Source: a phage
Sequence record: NC_101835.1
DNA: 64,000 nucleotides
Direction: 5' to 3' (one strand)
The notes beneath the pieces are model-generated. The model was given only the letters and a program-made list of their open reading frames with translations. It had not been told where the DNA came from and ran no database searches. The stretch's first letter is position 1, and every line of letters begins with the position of its first letter. Positions 21,301 to 46,056 of this stretch are shown piece after piece. Both the position numbers and the translations under genes were made by a program.

Positions 21301-22439
21301 GTTTCTTGTATCTTTAATTTGTATATTATGTATACACTTGTAAACCAATCTAATCTGAATCTGTTTACCACACAAAGCGGATAGAGACAAATATTGCCTA
21401 TTAAACTTGAATTATTTATAGAAAATACCACAACACTACTTAAGTCTTTGATTTTACACACAAATCCTGCAGATATTCACCCTCCATATTTAACATACTT
21501 GTAACATATTCCATACTCTACCTGCCCGATCAATTCACCCAACTACATCCCCATATTTTCCCTGTCTGTACTACCCCTGCCCCGCCGGGAGTCCCATCAT
21601 ATCTGGCTTTCCAGCAAATATCACACCCACAAATATCATTGCCTGAAGAGGGTTTCATCCCATAATACCTGCCTTACCTGAAGAGCGCTTCATACACCAC
21701 GTAAATTTTTTAATTGACCTCCCCCTGCCCCGCCGGAGAGGTTGGCTTTTCCCACACAGACCTGAAGAGTCAGCCAGAAATATCTGAATAGGCCCAATTC
21801 TACCACGATTTTGACCTGACCTACAGGGAGGCCCGAAGGGTCTAGCTTTCAGCTAGAGTCCTTGCAGGACCTACAGGAGCGCTGCCAGGCGGACGGAATG
21901 GGAATACTTCTCATTCTTATAACAATTCTCAAATATCGAGGCAGTGAGAGAAATTAATAGGCCAGGCCGTTCACACAGTGGCACAACATTTGCAACCTAT
22001 TTTGTGTGGATGAATGAGAATACCTATCATTATGAGAATAGTTATCATTACTGGCAATTTAACATAATACCCATTATGCGCACCACTGGCGATCCATACA
22101 GGGATTGATAACATGAGTTACTGTTTACGCATATAACAATTATATTTATTACTATTTGTGTTGGGTATAGTTAGCAGCCGATAGATTAGATATTGACCTG
22201 CAGACTTCCAACTGTCTAGACGTCTAAACGCCCACACAGCAAGGATTATACATACACAACTGAATGTAAACAGGGCCGCAAAAATGCTACCATACCAGAT
22301 TGTAAATTTTTCATGCAGCACTTGACAAAGAGGAGGAAAACTTGTCTGACATACTGTGACATAATATGACATAATAGTGACACACTGGGCATACTCAACA
22401 CTGGATACAATAACAATTGTTACTATTGCATGCCTCACT

Positions 22440-22750
22440 GTTCACGCATAGATGATAAGCCATGCCATTCGTTTGCATGACAATAATTAACTTGTTTACA
22501 ATCTTTCACTGGCTATGCCAGGTGACCTTTGGTCACCCCTTCGGGTGTTTCTATGACATAATATAAAAGCAGGGCAACTATTAGAAGATCTATAGTTGCC
22601 TTGCTTGTTATGTCATGATTAACTAAATACAAGGCAACTATGATCTGATTAATAGATTGCAGACAAACTATCACGGGGGTGATGGTTACTGCTTTTATAT
22701 TATGTCGCGACTCCGTCGCGCCATGCCATTCGTTTGCATAGTTGCCTTAT
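22440..22750. repeat. nested palindrome and direct-repeat complex
   Basis: GCCATGCCATTCGTTTGCAT twice (22459, 22720); GGCAACTAT/ATAGTTGCC arms four times; GACATAATATAAAAGC inverted at 22555 and 22691. Confidence 0.6.
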
Positions 22751-23351
22751 TGTTACAGGTAAAATAATTACATTATTAATTATTTCTTATCTTTCTCTTA
22801 GTCATCTAATGATTCCAGTCAGTATAGTAATGTACAGTAAACATTAGACGACTAAATATTTCTCTGTTTATGATAACTCACCGTGACAATTTCGGACTGT
22901 TTACGAAAAATGTTGACACCTAAGCTGATTTATGTTATGCAGTTTACACGAATAATTATTTTATGCAGGTATTGACTATTCCGTTATTCTGTGGTTGGAA
23001 TAAATACTTTGCAGGCTATAGAATGGCGTGCGTACATGAATTCTGAGATCTGGCGGCTATAGTTATACTCGATTTTTCACGTAGAACACGCTTTTTAGTT
23101 TGTGTAAGTGTATGACTTATAAGAATTTTTACTTGTTGACAAGATATTGAAGATCTGCATCAGGTTAAAATTTGTGCAATAGCTGCATTACGTGCAATTT
23201 TGGAAGGGAAAACGGGTAAAAATAGCCCTGCTACCACACAATGAAAAGTTATGCAATAGTTATTTTACATGTATATTTGTACAGTGTGTGGGGTTGATGG
23301 CTCGTCAATTATTCCACTTGCCAGGTAGGGCCGTTTATGGTAGGAGAAGAG

Positions 23352-23381
23352 CAGACAAAAAGAAAGGGGCCTAAGCCCCTT
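23352..23381 (-). terminator. rho-independent terminator closing the leftward array
   Basis: On minus strand AGGGGC-tta-GGCCCCT followed by TTCTTTTTGTC, just after the stop of 23400-23819. Confidence 0.6.
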
Positions 23382-23399
23382 GATAATTCAGTTAAAAAA

Positions 23400-23819
23400 T
23401 TATAATGATTCGTATATTTCAAAAATCCGATTTGCCAGGTCGTTACGGTAGCGGAATTTTTCCTCACGTTTGATCATAAGATCTTTATAGCCGTACTCTT
23501 TAAGCACTTCATTAACTTTATGGCGGCATACTTTCATATTATCCTGCGCGTCACCAATAAATCTGTTGCTATGGTGCATGGCTTTAATTTCTTCTTCCAG
23601 GACCAGGGCAACTATGCGGACCGGATCAAGCTGATAGGCGGTAACATCCATGCGGCATTGTAAACGGCTTTTTACGTCTGCCACCGGATATACTGCAACC
23701 TCTTCCCCGTCAACATTGACAATAATTAGTTTACCATCGATTTCGAATCCTTTCGCCGCCGGACCGTGACAAAAAGCGTTATCAAAGCTATATGCCGGAT
23801 TATTAGATTTAATGTTCAT
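23400..23819 (-). CDS. hypothetical protein
   Basis: Own promoter (TTGACA-17-TATATT on minus strand near 23890-23862); RBS AAGAGG. Confidence 0.55.
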   Translation of the reverse strand: MNIKSNNPAYSFDNAFCHGPAAKGFEIDGKLIIVNVDGEEVAVYPVADVKSRLQCRMDVTAYQLDPVRIVALVLEEEIKAMHHSNRFIGDAQDNMKVCRHKVNEVLKEYGYKDLMIKREEKFRYRNDLANRIFEIYESL

Positions 23820-24668: not shown

Positions 24669-24711
24669 GGCAGGCCCGGTGATTGTCTCCCCCCGTCGCC
24701 AGGTGCCTGCC
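24669..24711 (-). other. conserved 43-nt stem-loop element, copy 1
   Basis: GGCAGGC...GCCTGCC imperfect hairpin just after a TTGCAA-16-TATACT promoter; related copies at 33658 and 33809. Confidence 0.5.
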
Positions 24712-24771
24712 GTGAAACAAGTATAACAAAAAACAGGACCATTGCAAGCCCTGTTTTGTAGTTTATAAATA

Positions 24772-33454: not shown

Positions 33455-33657
33455 TTTTGTACCTCCTCTTCAATTGTTACCTATCCTATAGCATAGGCCC
33501 ACCAGGTTTACAAGCCTTCATTCTCCCCTACCTGGTCAGTTAGGTCCTGCCAGGCTGGCCCCGCCAGGTTGCAGCGGTTAGCGCATCAGGTTAGAAAAAT
33601 TTTTTGAAAAGTGTTGACAGCGGCCCCGCCAGGTGGCACAATATACCTATCGAAAGG

Positions 33658-33693
33658 ACGGCAGGCACTGGTGACGGGGGAGACAACCACCGG
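33658..33693 (+). other. conserved stem-loop element, copy 2
   Basis: GGCAGGCACTGGTGACGGGGGAGACAACCACCGGGG, homologous to the reverse complement of 24669-24711. Confidence 0.45.
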
Positions 33694-33808
33694 GGATGGG
33701 CGCTGCATAAAATGAGAACGATTATCATTATCATTTAAAAATTTATGCAAAAAATCCTTGCTTTCTTTGTCCTGTGTGATACTATAATAACAAGCCGGGG
33801 CAACAGGG

Positions 33809-33832
33809 GCCGGGAGACAATCACCGGGCCTG
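33809..33832 (+). other. conserved stem-loop element, partial copy 3
   Basis: CGGGAGACAATCACCGGGCCTGCC matches the 3' half of the 24669 element. Confidence 0.45.
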
Positions 33833-33949
33833 CCCGTTATTCTGCAAACGAGAATGATTATCATTCAAAATTCTAAATGAGAACTCCTCGCATTTAATAA
33901 ATTTAATTAGCACGCTAATTACCTACCGTGACAATTATATATAAAATAA

Positions 33950-34440
33950 TACCTCCTAAAATATTTCCATATACAAATTTTAAAAATCCATTTCTGAAAA
34001 CGAAAAATCGATTTCGTCCCCAAAAATTTCAGGTCGAGATCCGGAACGATTTCCAGAAAATCCGATTTAGAAAACGAAAAACAGATCGAGTACTGAGAAA
34101 TTTATCGAGAAAAATTTTCAGAAAATCCAAGCCATGAAATGAAAAGTAGATCGAGTACTGGAAAAATTGTACCGCAACCCACTGATAGTGATGGGTTTTC
34201 CGTCATAAATCACTAAGAGTGAGTGGAGAAAGGTATGGTGGAGAGGTGTGTATGTGTGGGAAATCTGTAATGGTGGCCTGAAATATGGTGCAAACGGCTA
34301 GATAGATTGGCACAATTTTCCGCGCCTGTGTTGAAAAAATCCATTTTAGTTTTCGATCCATTTTCTGATTTTCTAAGGATTTTAAAATATCCTGGTAGGT
34401 AAAATATCAAAAGGAGGAAATCCATTTTAGAAATCCCCCT
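33950..34440. repeat. AT-rich iteron region
   Basis: GAAAATCC(A/G)(A/T)TT five times, AGATCGAGTACTG twice (34083, 34148), palindrome TAATTAGC-ac-GCTAATTA near 33903. Confidence 0.55.
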
Positions 34441-34470
34441 TATACTTGATATGCCAGGAATTTTCAAGTA

Positions 34471-43356: not shown

Positions 43357-43632
43357 CAATAGTTCAGGTAGGTCGTTAAGCTACCCCGCACCATTACGTG
43401 CATAGCCATACGTTTTCACGTAGGATCGGACCATCTCATATTCCTATGATAAGCAACCACAGGAATCCTCCCATTTCGACCGCACTTGCTGGTCTACTTC
43501 CTTTCGGAATGGCCTCTGAGCGTTCGCTCTTTTGAGCGCTTCGTTGCGGATTACCTTGCCATAAGGTTTAGGCTTCCCGCAGTTAAAGAGGTTATTCGAC
43601 ATAGATTACTCTATGAAGCCACAATGTTATTT
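43357..43632 (-). mobile_element. group I intron in DNA polymerase gene, no ORF
   Basis: Exon 1 ends on U after ...IIYYH, intron ends on G before DE; splicing rebuilds the YYH|DE motif; 276 nt. Confidence 0.6.
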
Positions 43633-46056
43633 ATGGTAATAAATAATACGACGAACACCTTCATCGTACCACCCACGCTTCACCATTTGGTGGTGCATAA
43701 GTATCCCAACCAAGTCACACAGCGATGCACCACCATTCTGTTGATATGCATTAAGTAAAGAGTGTTTAGATCGGGTCCAGATGGCATGACCATCAAAAGA
43801 GTAGATAAACTTCTTACCCGTTGCTTCCCAGAATTTCTCCAGATCCTCTTTACGGCCCTTAAGACCAGGGTTGGCATCCCAAAGCGCATCGATTACCCTT
43901 TGTCCCAACTCTGGAGAGATGTCCAGCATATCTGCAACTTTATCTTTTTGTGCCCCGTACATAACCCCATACGTGATAGGTTTACCGTCGTTACGGGACA
44001 CCTCTCTACCTGCTACTTTTGTATATGCCTCAGCATTGTTTTGGTGTGCGTCCCCGTTACTTACAACATCGTAATACAGGCCGTTGTCGAACTCAAAGGC
44101 ACCCCAAGCCCCGATAAGCTGCTCTAAGTTGGACCCGTCAATACCGATCTCAAAGTATCCCGGAGGAACACCCCACAGACTACGCATCTCTTTACCCATA
44201 ACCACTTTAGGAGATGGTTTAGGCATGTTTGCACAAATACTGTGTTTCTGTCTGGAAGTGTTTGTTAATCCAGAGCTTTTAGCAGGAAGCTTATGGTCAA
44301 TCTTCAAACGTGGGTGATTAAGAAGACCAGTGTCAACCTTATCCTCCTTGATTGGATCAAGTACCGATCTGCGGTTTCGCAATGATAACCATAAGACGAT
44401 ATCTTTAGCCATCTCTCCGTTCAATTTTTCAAGATTCGGACACAGGTGTCCAAACGTATCTTTCAGTTGCGGAGAAGTAATAAGTGCCCTAGCTTTTCTA
44501 CGTATTTTCCCGAATACTTCCTTTTTAATCCTTTCGGAGTTAGGAAAGCTTCGGAACTTGTGCACTGTTGTCTGAAACTTAGCATCAGTTTTGTTCCAGA
44601 AGTTGATAATTAGGTCACAATACTCTGACTCTAAAAGCTCGTCCATGTATGCATATACTCGTGCATCAACATCTGCATCAGGTAGAGCTTTCTTCTTGCT
44701 GTCTTTAGTTACATCCTTAGTTCTCCACATTGTCGGAAGCCAACCAGCACTGATCAGGTATCGCTTAATGTCGTCCTGATTGCTGATTTTCATAGGTATC
44801 TTGCAGTCAGGCATTCGCTTCTGCTGCAGATCGCTTATTGCCTGATCCATCAGCTCTTTAGGCAAAGGTTGTGGTGTGGAGGTGCCCTTAATATAACCTC
44901 TCAAGAAATCAGCCATCTTGTCGGGGTCTTTGCAGCCCATCTCTTCACACCATTTTATCCCCATCTTACTGACATCTCCTGTGGAGGTAAATGCTCTCTT
45001 AGGCGGGGCTTTGAACTCTAGAGCGCTCATGTCTACAGGATAGCCAAGCTTATCTTTTAACCATTTCCAACCATTATTAGAGATTGTCCCGTCTTGGTTA
45101 AACGGCTTTTCAGGGAACTTGGGCCGCTGAGACATTGACAGCTCTTTTAAAGGCAGTTGTGGTTCAACACGATCAGCGATTTCTTTCATCCACGCATCGC
45201 AACGGTCACGTAAAGCAATAGCTCCATCTATGTCGAAGTATACACCCTGACGGGCCTGCAGCTCCATCAGGAAGTGCTGCAGCATGCCTCGACGTAATGC
45301 GTTCTTCCAGGTGATCTTCTTGAACCCTTTCGGCTTCTCTTTGGCAGGATCGTACATAAAGTTCTGCATGTCAGATTTGCCGTAGAATACACCTTTTGAT
45401 TCCGCTACCAGTTCTTTCCAGAGCAGCTCCTGGATGATAACGTCCTCAAATACACGATCCACATACTTCCACAACGGAAGATCGCGCCAGTCATCAATTT
45501 GAACTTTCTGGTTACCAAGGGCATAGCCCCATGCCATAAGGCCGTGGGGACCAACAGGCTGCATTTTCTTAGTAACCGGGTTGAATACAGCGTCCGGACA
45601 ACCTTTTGGTAAAGGGCGATCAGGCCACAAGATTCGGCTCATCGCCAACGTATCAAACAGGTTAACCTGGTGGTCGTTGATAGTCCCCATGCATTTAGGA
45701 TCACGGAACATATCAAAATGAATACCGGATAATCTTTCCATCAGCATAAAGTCATAACTGTAGCAGTTATGGCAGTTCAAAGCTGTTGGTGACCAGTCGG
45801 AATTGCCTGTAAGCCAACCTTCCAACTCCGAAAAATCTGCTATGCGAACTTCAAAACCTTTATAAAGAGTTTTCTTTGCCAGAATGAAGTTCTTAGCCTT
45901 TTCTATATCCTCCTCGGAGTAGTGTGTGCGGTCATTTAGAGGAAGGAACAGCATAAAACGGTTCTTATTCAGCTCTTTAAACAGGCCGCAGTGATAATAA
46001 AGATCTGGATCTTCCAAAAGCCCTGAGGCCTCCAGATCGAAGCACCAATTACTCAT
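43633..46056 (-). CDS. DNA polymerase A, exon 1 (3'-5' exonuclease and polymerase motifs A/B)
   Basis: Exo I FDLEASGL; motif B RNDGKPITYGVMYGAQ; upstream of motif C colinear with T7 gp5. Confidence 0.8.

Follow-up and report, generated by a model that had tools for sequence, protein, structure and literature searches.

What does a kilobase of DNA without convincing genes do inside a long array of small phage genes? The locus that raises this question lies at positions 33460-34470 of a 64,000-nucleotide stretch of phage DNA (record NC_101835.1; the whole stretch is referred to here as the window), within a long leftward array of small genes of unassigned function, and its end at 34470 adjoins the stop codon of the next leftward gene. 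The window is from a Vequintavirus, 96% identical to phage V5; the segment 33200-34800 aligns with Escherichia phage V5/rV5 (NC_011041, 116398-117996) at 96% identity and is matched by 121 phage records, nearly all of them Vequintavirus. An original prediction, made from the sequence of the window, had proposed an internal origin, a regulatory hub or an antisense RNA gene, and the features it listed were all found within a few bases of where it had placed them; Fur-type boxes, a composite structure of ~70-bp repeats and conservation beyond the genus were not part of it. We find that the locus is real and not an artefact, and that it is a non-coding module of predicted tandem promoters, G-rich leaders, Fur-type boxes and two repeat clusters held at a fixed distance. 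Read from its sequence, the module would be a conserved protein-DNA assembly site and most likely the replication origin of rV5-like phages, of a transcription-activated iteron type and possibly gated by Fur, a reading that we hold tentatively and at somewhat less than an even chance. No paper describing the region was found in the literature on the origin, transcriptome, non-coding RNA or Fur box of the rV5 group.

The region 33460-34470 is non-coding. Its description as free of open reading frames (ORFs) holds in substance, as annotated ORFs are inconsistent between records and broken in relatives. The V5 record annotates ORF198 (33586-33864, minus strand) and ORF199 (about 34213-34467, minus strand) here, other records annotate different ORFs and two annotate none. 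It could be argued that the region encodes small proteins, either these or one on the plus strand at 33928-34137, considering that open frames do exist in the window sequence and that some GenBank records annotate them. However, in an alignment of eleven close relatives the variable sites are spread almost evenly by codon position (42/36/37), with no period of 3. ORF198 is broken by a 134-bp deletion in phage AlexBoehm and by a 1-nt insertion in EdH4, and ORF199 overlies a spacer in which relatives carry compensating 1-2-nt indels and which has stop codons in every frame. Two repeated units, A and B, lie 134 bp apart and therefore sit in different frames, no ORF of the region has a Pfam match at threshold, and across the repeats the genera have no ORF strand or frame in common. 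The plus-strand frame at 33928-34137, which had been judged probably not real, indeed has no codon periodicity and no counterpart frame across genera. Small proteins are thus a very improbable explanation. The region is present in 100-plus public genomes, and calls there such as ORF198 and ORF199 are probably spurious.

Conservation of this non-coding DNA is strong at close range and extends well beyond the genus. Three segments hardly vary among close relatives (33560-33900, 33975-34160 and 34335-34470), whereas 34160-34330 differs at ~30% of positions. A sensitive DNA search found the segment comprising leader B and its Fur box at 72-88% identity in Phapecoctavirus, Mydovirus, Certrevirus, Seunavirus and Henunavirus, with the matches mostly in unannotated DNA. 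The corresponding loci are again ORF-poor gaps in a leftward array, ~0.8-1.2 kb long in five of them and interrupted by an annotated hypothetical ORF in BIS47. The order of parts is common to the genera: two promoters, a leader with (G)AGACAAWCACCG, one to four Fur-type boxes, three repeats, a spacer of ~190 bp and a cluster of AAAWCCRTTTC and AAATATC motifs. The module is therefore kept in Vequinta-, Certre-, Seuna-, Mydo-, Henuna- and Phapecoctavirus. The proteins flanking the locus in the window are undetectable in the other genera, so that conservation is stronger in the non-coding module than in the genes around it. Comparative genomics, one of the checks originally proposed, thus returned a region that is near-invariant in close relatives and whose architecture is kept among unrelated flanking genes, which supports a conserved functional, non-coding module. 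Of the roles first proposed, this much stands, together with repeats and a spacer that are compatible with an origin, while the stem-loops that had been part of the case have no support from covariation. The promoter and leader segment has no host homologue in 5,426 E. coli genomes.

The right half of the module consists of two repeat clusters and the spacer between them. Three composite direct repeats (33978-34021, 34050-34095 and 34115-34160, plus strand) stand in the same orientation, start 74 and 65 bp apart and are 62-74% identical to each other, in DNA of 33% GC compared with 43% for the window. Each unit has a box1 (AAAATCCRWTT), GAAAACGAAAAAC and a box2 ((G)ATCGAGTACTG), and A5T4-6 tracts lie between units. 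The GAAAATCC units previously noted here, five by that count, are present: AAAATCCRWTT has three exact copies in the region, at 33983, 34057 and 34336, and near-copies at 34121, 34355 and 34417; the whole window has 5 exact copies against 0.31 expected. Both AGATCGAGTACTG units are present, at 34083-34095 and 34148-34160. In other genera the composite repeat reads A5T6 tract, box1, GAAAAyGAAAAmc, box2, with units of 63-78 bp; box1 differs by genus (AAAATCCRWTT or AAAATACGWTYT), whereas the box2 motif GATCGAG is widely shared. Three units were seen in each examined genus with a recognisable box2, and Phapecoctavirus has three repeats of different sequence. The right-hand cluster (34335-34470, plus strand, 29% GC) holds three AAATCCATTTT-type boxes (34335-34349, 34355-34367 and 34417-34430) and two copies of AAAATATC (34384 and 34401), and clusters of AAAWCCRTTTC and AAATATC occur in BIS47, SSE121, CR3, KaOmega and Hena1. 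As the repeat motifs are concentrated at this locus and not spread through the genome, a protein that binds them would probably act at one place.

Between the two clusters lies a hypervariable spacer (34161-34334), with ~30% divergence and compensating indels of 1-2 nt. Measured between the last box2 and the first right-hand box, 10 of 11 relatives have 187 bp and the remaining one has 188 bp; other genera have 185-200 bp. Here the sequence is free to vary but the length is not, which suggests that the geometry of the DNA between two protein-binding clusters is under constraint. The spacers of other genera have a motif of their own: TTGAGATAA, with variants, has three copies in BIS47 and in Hena1, whose spacers are otherwise unrelated, and two to three copies in the spacer of Mt1B1_P17 (L018 1860-2000, L021 1835-1965 and L017 1925-1975), and is absent from the spacer of the window.

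To the left of the repeats, two predicted promoters face them in tandem. P_A (33614-33642, plus strand; TTGACA-17-CACAAT with a TG extension) matches the sigma-70 consensus at 10/12 positions; it is the plus-strand promoter of the original prediction, now seen as one of a conserved pair. It is invariant in 10 close relatives, and other genera have a promoter at the equivalent position. P_B (33758-33788, plus strand; TTGCTT-16-TACTAT with a TG extension, or alternatively TATAAT at 33783-33788) was read from the sequence, its -35 being too weak to be reported by a promoter scan. Ten lineages keep -35 and -10 hexamers at the P_B position, with varying sequences and spacers. Promoter-like sites are in excess, chiefly on the plus strand (6 where 1.9 would be expected, and 7 where 2.6 would be). 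Both predicted promoters point rightward, opposing the leftward gene array and reading into the AT-rich repeats, with no conserved ORF downstream, and no intrinsic terminator was found on the plus strand of the region. In other genera, leftward promoter-like sites occur near the left edge of the module.

Each promoter is followed by a G-rich leader with a near-invariant 13-mer, GAGACAAWCACCG, and the two predicted promoter-leader units A and B are paralogues of ~134 bp each. Leader A (33660-33706, plus strand) can be drawn as a G-rich imperfect hairpin (fold z -1.1) around the invariant core GAGACAACCACCG (33680-33692), and leader B (33798-33835, plus strand; fold z -2.4) as an imperfect hairpin GGGCA...UGCCC with an apical GA-GACAA-UC around GAGACAATCACCG (33814-33826). 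In Escherichia phage AlexBoehm (MZ501048) a clean 134-bp deletion runs between the 13-mer cores, equivalent to 33678-33811, and leaves one hybrid promoter-leader unit; the deletion is the product of recombination between units A and B. As AlexBoehm lost exactly one unit, one is enough and the two are redundant. Other genera have, after the first promoter and in place of unit A, a different conserved element of ~100 nt that is not a copy of unit B (CGCCACCCCACGGCG...GGCGGGGCUAAC...GGAUCGCCGGUAG; loci L017-L022 and L121, e.g., L019 1323-1427). This element has no Rfam match and may form a pseudoknot, considering that a loop CCCC and a downstream GGGG change to CCA and UGG in Hena1.

The leader motif is not confined to this locus. 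GGGAGACAAYCACCGGG occurs at 33678 and 33812 and again at 24675-24691 on the minus strand, that is, three times in the window against 0.2 expected. The third leader (24669-24711, minus strand) has the GAGACAATCACCG core and directly follows a composite terminator/promoter, starting 8 nt after it, the whole copy spanning 24669-24760 on that strand. In this cassette the -35 TTGCAA (24742-24747) sits in the loop of a stem ACAGG/CCTGT, the T-run forms the spacer and TATACT (24720-24725) is the -10. Further afield, the IMG/VR contig IMGVR_UViG_3300027123_000194 (46.8 kb), from an unrelated phage, carries at least five copies of GGAGACAAWCACCGGGG. Each of the four copies inspected stands between small ORFs, ~23 nt behind an extended -10 promoter and with a T-run after it. 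The motif thus occurs outside rV5-like phages as well, and a near-invariant 13-mer behind the promoters of unrelated phages suggests a class of promoter-proximal element that has so far gone unrecognised.

It was initially thought that this part of the region carried two copies of a conserved stem-loop. Two paralogous units with GGGAGACAAYCACCGGG are indeed present, but what is conserved is the primary sequence, and the fold does not rise above chance. Each leader homologue can fold as a long imperfect hairpin with an apical GA-GACAA-UC, yet most fold no more stably than shuffled sequence, with most z-scores near 0; the plus strand folds more stably in 16 of 21, as expected for G-rich sequence. 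RNAalifold gave no consensus structure for the leader. Over 17 sequences, 60.6% of cells were paired compared with 60.4% in shuffles, and the covariation score of 0.134 (0.118 shuffled) was reached by 59 of 500 shuffles, a test limited by loop indels that shift the register of the alignment. The case for a selected structure is thus weak. Rfam searches at gathering and permissive thresholds returned no relevant match in the region (E up to 10) or in six related loci (E up to 1), the window has no tRNA genes, and sites complementary to the 13-mer are in no excess in the window (7 against 5.4 expected).

Two kinds of known element resemble these leaders in part. Like the PeSL cassettes of T4-type phages, the units are repeated promoter-centred cassettes among small early genes, one of which has been lost by recombination between copies (AlexBoehm) and one of which, the 24.7-kb copy, has a composite terminator/promoter; unlike them, the conserved element follows the promoter, shows none of the features of a terminator and is preserved as a sequence and not as a stem (PMC4122927; PMC2839356). 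The leader element also recalls the nut/boxB sites of lambdoid phages, in that it is promoter-proximal, recurs in more than one transcription unit and may have an apical GACAA loop above a closing A-U pair. The boxB of P22 has a GACAA pentaloop. However, no boxA is present here, some homologues have another loop (ACAAA in BIS47) and covariation lends the stem no support. We know of no N-like protein for phages with the leader motif.

Downstream of each leader, the palindromic boxes are predicted Fur-type operators. The Fur box is described as a 19-bp GATAATGATAATCATTATC or as overlapping 7-1-7 motifs (PMC11353095). Operator A (33711-33735) comprises two 7-1-7 motifs offset by 6 bp, and its GAGAACGATTATCATTATC (33714-33732) matches the E. 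coli Fur box at 17/19 positions on the reverse strand, the only match in the window against 0.01 expected. Box B1 (33847-33865) scores 12/14 against the 7-1-7 motif, and a degenerate box B2 (33876-33894) lies 29 bp from it; scores run at 12-13/14 per motif, with three sites at 12/14. In the window, 7-1-7 sites cluster only in the two ORF-free regions (9 against 1.4 expected). The consensus of 29 boxes from nine loci, aAATGAGAATGATTATCATTt, agrees with AATGATAATnATTATCATT at 17/18 positions, and arrays of up to four boxes occur with a spacing of 29 bp or 18 bp, the 29-bp phasing being seen in CR3, KaOmega and L113. The next 29-bp phase after the boxes of the window is taken by an inverted repeat, TAATTAGC-AC-GCTAATTA (33904-33921), in DNA of 25% GC (33900-33975). 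It had been described as an 18-bp perfect palindrome; it is present, but consists of two 8-bp arms and a 2-nt centre and is not strictly perfect, and close relatives keep it with a C/T change at the centre.

The likeness to enterobacterial Fur boxes (PMC11353095) covers the 17/19 match, the two 7-1-7 motifs of box A, offset by 6 bp as is classical, and the occurrence in arrays. The differences are that these sites belong to a strictly lytic phage, lie downstream of promoters, prefer TGAGAAT in the left half-site and in several genera are phased by 29 bp. The commonest form of the box places G opposite A between half-sites, and such an uncompensated difference is expected of a protein operator and not of a selected RNA hairpin. 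Boxes start 71 nt (unit A) and 61-64 nt (unit B) after the -10 of their own promoter, and box A ends 22 bp upstream of the P_B -35. No Fur homologue was found by tblastn in any phage of the group or in any Vequintavirinae record, with an E. coli Fur query that matched one phage record at 99.3%; any Fur-family binder would therefore be that of the host. A scan of IMG/VR for the Fur-box pattern returned mostly loci with nothing else in common with the region. The other, larger ORF-free region of the window, at 21.7-23.4 kb, contains two pairs of Fur-type boxes, 21899/21917 and 22015/22033, each with a spacing of 18 bp. A DnaA-box-like TGTGGATGA is found at 22005 in the same region (21700-23400).

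How might these parts work together? We propose that a phage-encoded protein binds the three ~70-bp composite repeats and the second cluster, the ~187-bp distance between the clusters suggesting looping or wrapping, and that this binding would bend and open DNA of 25-33% GC. Host RNA polymerase starting at P_A and P_B would run rightward into the repeats, against the leftward array, and this transcription would activate the origin or prime a T7-type replisome with a family A polymerase and a gp4-type helicase. Fur-Fe2+ bound to the boxes between promoters and repeats could act as a roadblock or an architectural factor, so that initiation would be tied to iron supply. In its most specific form, in which Vequintavirinae and Phapecoctavirus replicate from the module, host Fur is an iron checkpoint on firing through the rightward transcripts and the 13-mer leader is a new element shared with unrelated phages, we would give this proposal only a small chance.

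The origin reading draws on a module that is kept across genera in which no flanking protein is detectable, on three same-orientation repeats in AT-rich DNA with motifs confined to the locus, on a second repeat cluster at a fixed distance and on predicted tandem promoters that face the repeats with nothing to express. Compared with iteron origins (lambda ori, P1 oriR, R6K, pSC101 and the PLE ori with RepA_N; PMC7145576), the locus has A-tracts and three same-orientation, regularly spaced direct repeats (74 and 65 bp apart, 63-78 bp in other genera) beside DNA that is AT-rich (25%, 33% and 29% GC, the window having 43%). In addition, box1 of the repeat varies by genus and the motifs are confined to one locus. 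In contrast to those origins, its units are composite, with two boxes and A-tracts, and only three in number, and neither an initiator gene beside it nor a DnaA box or IHF site was found. Transcription-activated origins offer a second parallel. The primary origin of T7 consists of two promoters followed by AT-rich DNA, and oriF and oriG of T4 are transcription-primed. Here too, P_A and P_B are predicted promoters that read into AT-rich DNA without a downstream gene, two in tandem as in T7, and the replisome of rV5 is of the same kind as that of T7. The promoters differ in being of the host sigma-70 type, neither phage-polymerase nor MotA-dependent, and the AT-rich target differs in having three large repeats and a second cluster, with Fur-type boxes in between. 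The locus combines known kinds of element in a new way and is not a new category.

Several observations weigh against an origin. No initiator gene was identified, the flanking proteins having neither a Pfam family nor conservation across genera; a conserved neighbouring gene was considered as the initiator and rejected, as none is detectable across genera, and the initiator may be encoded elsewhere in the genome. The region has no exact DnaA box, IHF consensus or enrichment of GATC (4 in 1 kb compared with 5 per kb in the window), and its GC skew gives no origin signal beyond transcription direction. For rV5, which has a family A polymerase, a gp4d/DnaB-type helicase and NrdAB, the authors of the genome paper sought an origin by skew analysis and found only changes linked to transcription direction. 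Repeat units of 63-78 bp are far above the 17-22 bp of classical iterons. The boxes overlap no promoter -35 or -10, unlike those of Fur-repressed genes (PMC11353095), and the ORF-free region at 21.7-23.4 kb, with its own Fur-type boxes, could be the origin instead or as well. The polymerase of ICP1 is among the closest homologues of that of rV5, and the ICP1 origin has been shown by sequencing coverage (PMC7145576); the ICP1 record examined has no obvious comparable gap near 60 kb, although its coordinates may differ from those of the strain in that paper.

Other functions must be weighed against the same observations. The locus could instead produce non-coding RNA and mark an operon boundary, with P_A and P_B making short rightward RNAs in which the 13-mer is active, for example through recognition by an RNA-binding factor of phage or host or as a base-pairing seed, and with repeats and Fur boxes timing these RNAs and insulating two leftward operons, without any part in replication. 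Conserved promoters without a downstream ORF are what this would predict, and the 13-mer stands at a variable distance from the -10 hexamer (23-37 nt), which fits an RNA element better than a DNA operator anchored to the promoter. The recurrence of the 13-mer behind the promoter at 24.7 kb and behind at least four promoters of the unrelated IMG/VR contig (a fifth copy was seen), the different RNA-like element of ~100 nt after the first promoter in other genera and the leftward promoter-like sites near the left edge there also agree with it. However, no Rfam family matches, pairing is as frequent in shuffled alignments (60.6% against 60.4%) with no covariation support, the fold of most homologues is no stabler than that of shuffled sequence and no terminator would set the 3' end. 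A role in RNA production also leaves the fixed spacer length, the three composite repeats and the uncompensated half-site differences unexplained. On balance we regard it as a genuine possibility but a doubtful one.

The Fur-type boxes could also be the purpose of the locus, which would then bind host Fur to switch neighbouring phage transcription according to iron status, or titrate Fur as phage genomes multiply and thereby de-repress iron uptake for the iron-dependent ribonucleotide reductase. No DNA element of the module is better conserved in sequence than these boxes, and this holds for phages whose annotated enterobacterial hosts differ and which have no Fur homologue of their own. In the window the boxes cluster only in its two ORF-free regions (9 against 1.4 expected), arrays have up to four of them spaced by 29 bp or 18 bp, and rV5 encodes NrdAB. 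Nevertheless, this idea seems unlikely to us, as the boxes are clear of promoter hexamers, a few sites per genome would make a weak sponge, and no role is left for the three repeats, the spacer of fixed length or the cluster on the right; the binder may also be an unrelated phage protein and not Fur. Repeats in a non-coding locus of an rV5-like phage might, in addition, recall a packaging (pac) site or an RNA antitoxin decoy such as the repeat-based pseudo-ToxI of the relative phiTE. The phiTE escape locus lies elsewhere in its genome, beside tRNA genes and the terminase gene, whereas the locus described here sits among small leftward genes with no terminase gene annotated nearby in V5. The present repeats are 62-74% identical with a period of 65-78 bp compared with the 36-nt repeats of ToxI, no toxin partner is present, and the related phages phiTE and PVP-SE1 are circularly permuted. 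A pseudo-ToxI decoy was rejected as a different locus with a different kind of repeat, and either form of this explanation is hardly credible. The replication-origin reading accommodates the repeats, the fixed spacer and the promoters that face them, and is the one we prefer.

If this reading is correct, and if the boxes do bind host Fur, strictly lytic phages would have an iron-sensing replication origin. Conserved Fur-type operators in such phages would tie phage development to host iron physiology, and no paper reporting such a link was found. This is of practical interest, as typing, biocontrol and therapy make use of rV5-like, phi92-like and PVP-SE1-like phages, which are often isolated, and the module offers a concrete 1-kb origin candidate with defined, separable parts.

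A few further observations concern the records that match the region and the wider window. A search of PLSDB with the repeat region returned a single match, CP057073.1 (137,565 bp), filed as an E. coli plasmid, at 84% identity over 95% of the query. It has the size of an rV5-like genome and is probably a phage genome deposited as a plasmid, and a plasmid origin was rejected as a candidate on the grounds that this sole match (137.6 kb) is itself an rV5-like phage. Sixteen MG0656xx records, labelled 'Campylobacter phage' with C. jejuni as host, also match the region, at ~92% identity in the records listed, and their host label looks doubtful. Finally, elsewhere in the leftward array, 43407-43642 on the minus strand matches the group I self-splicing intron model of Rfam over its full length (RF00028, 64.7 bits, E 4e-14).

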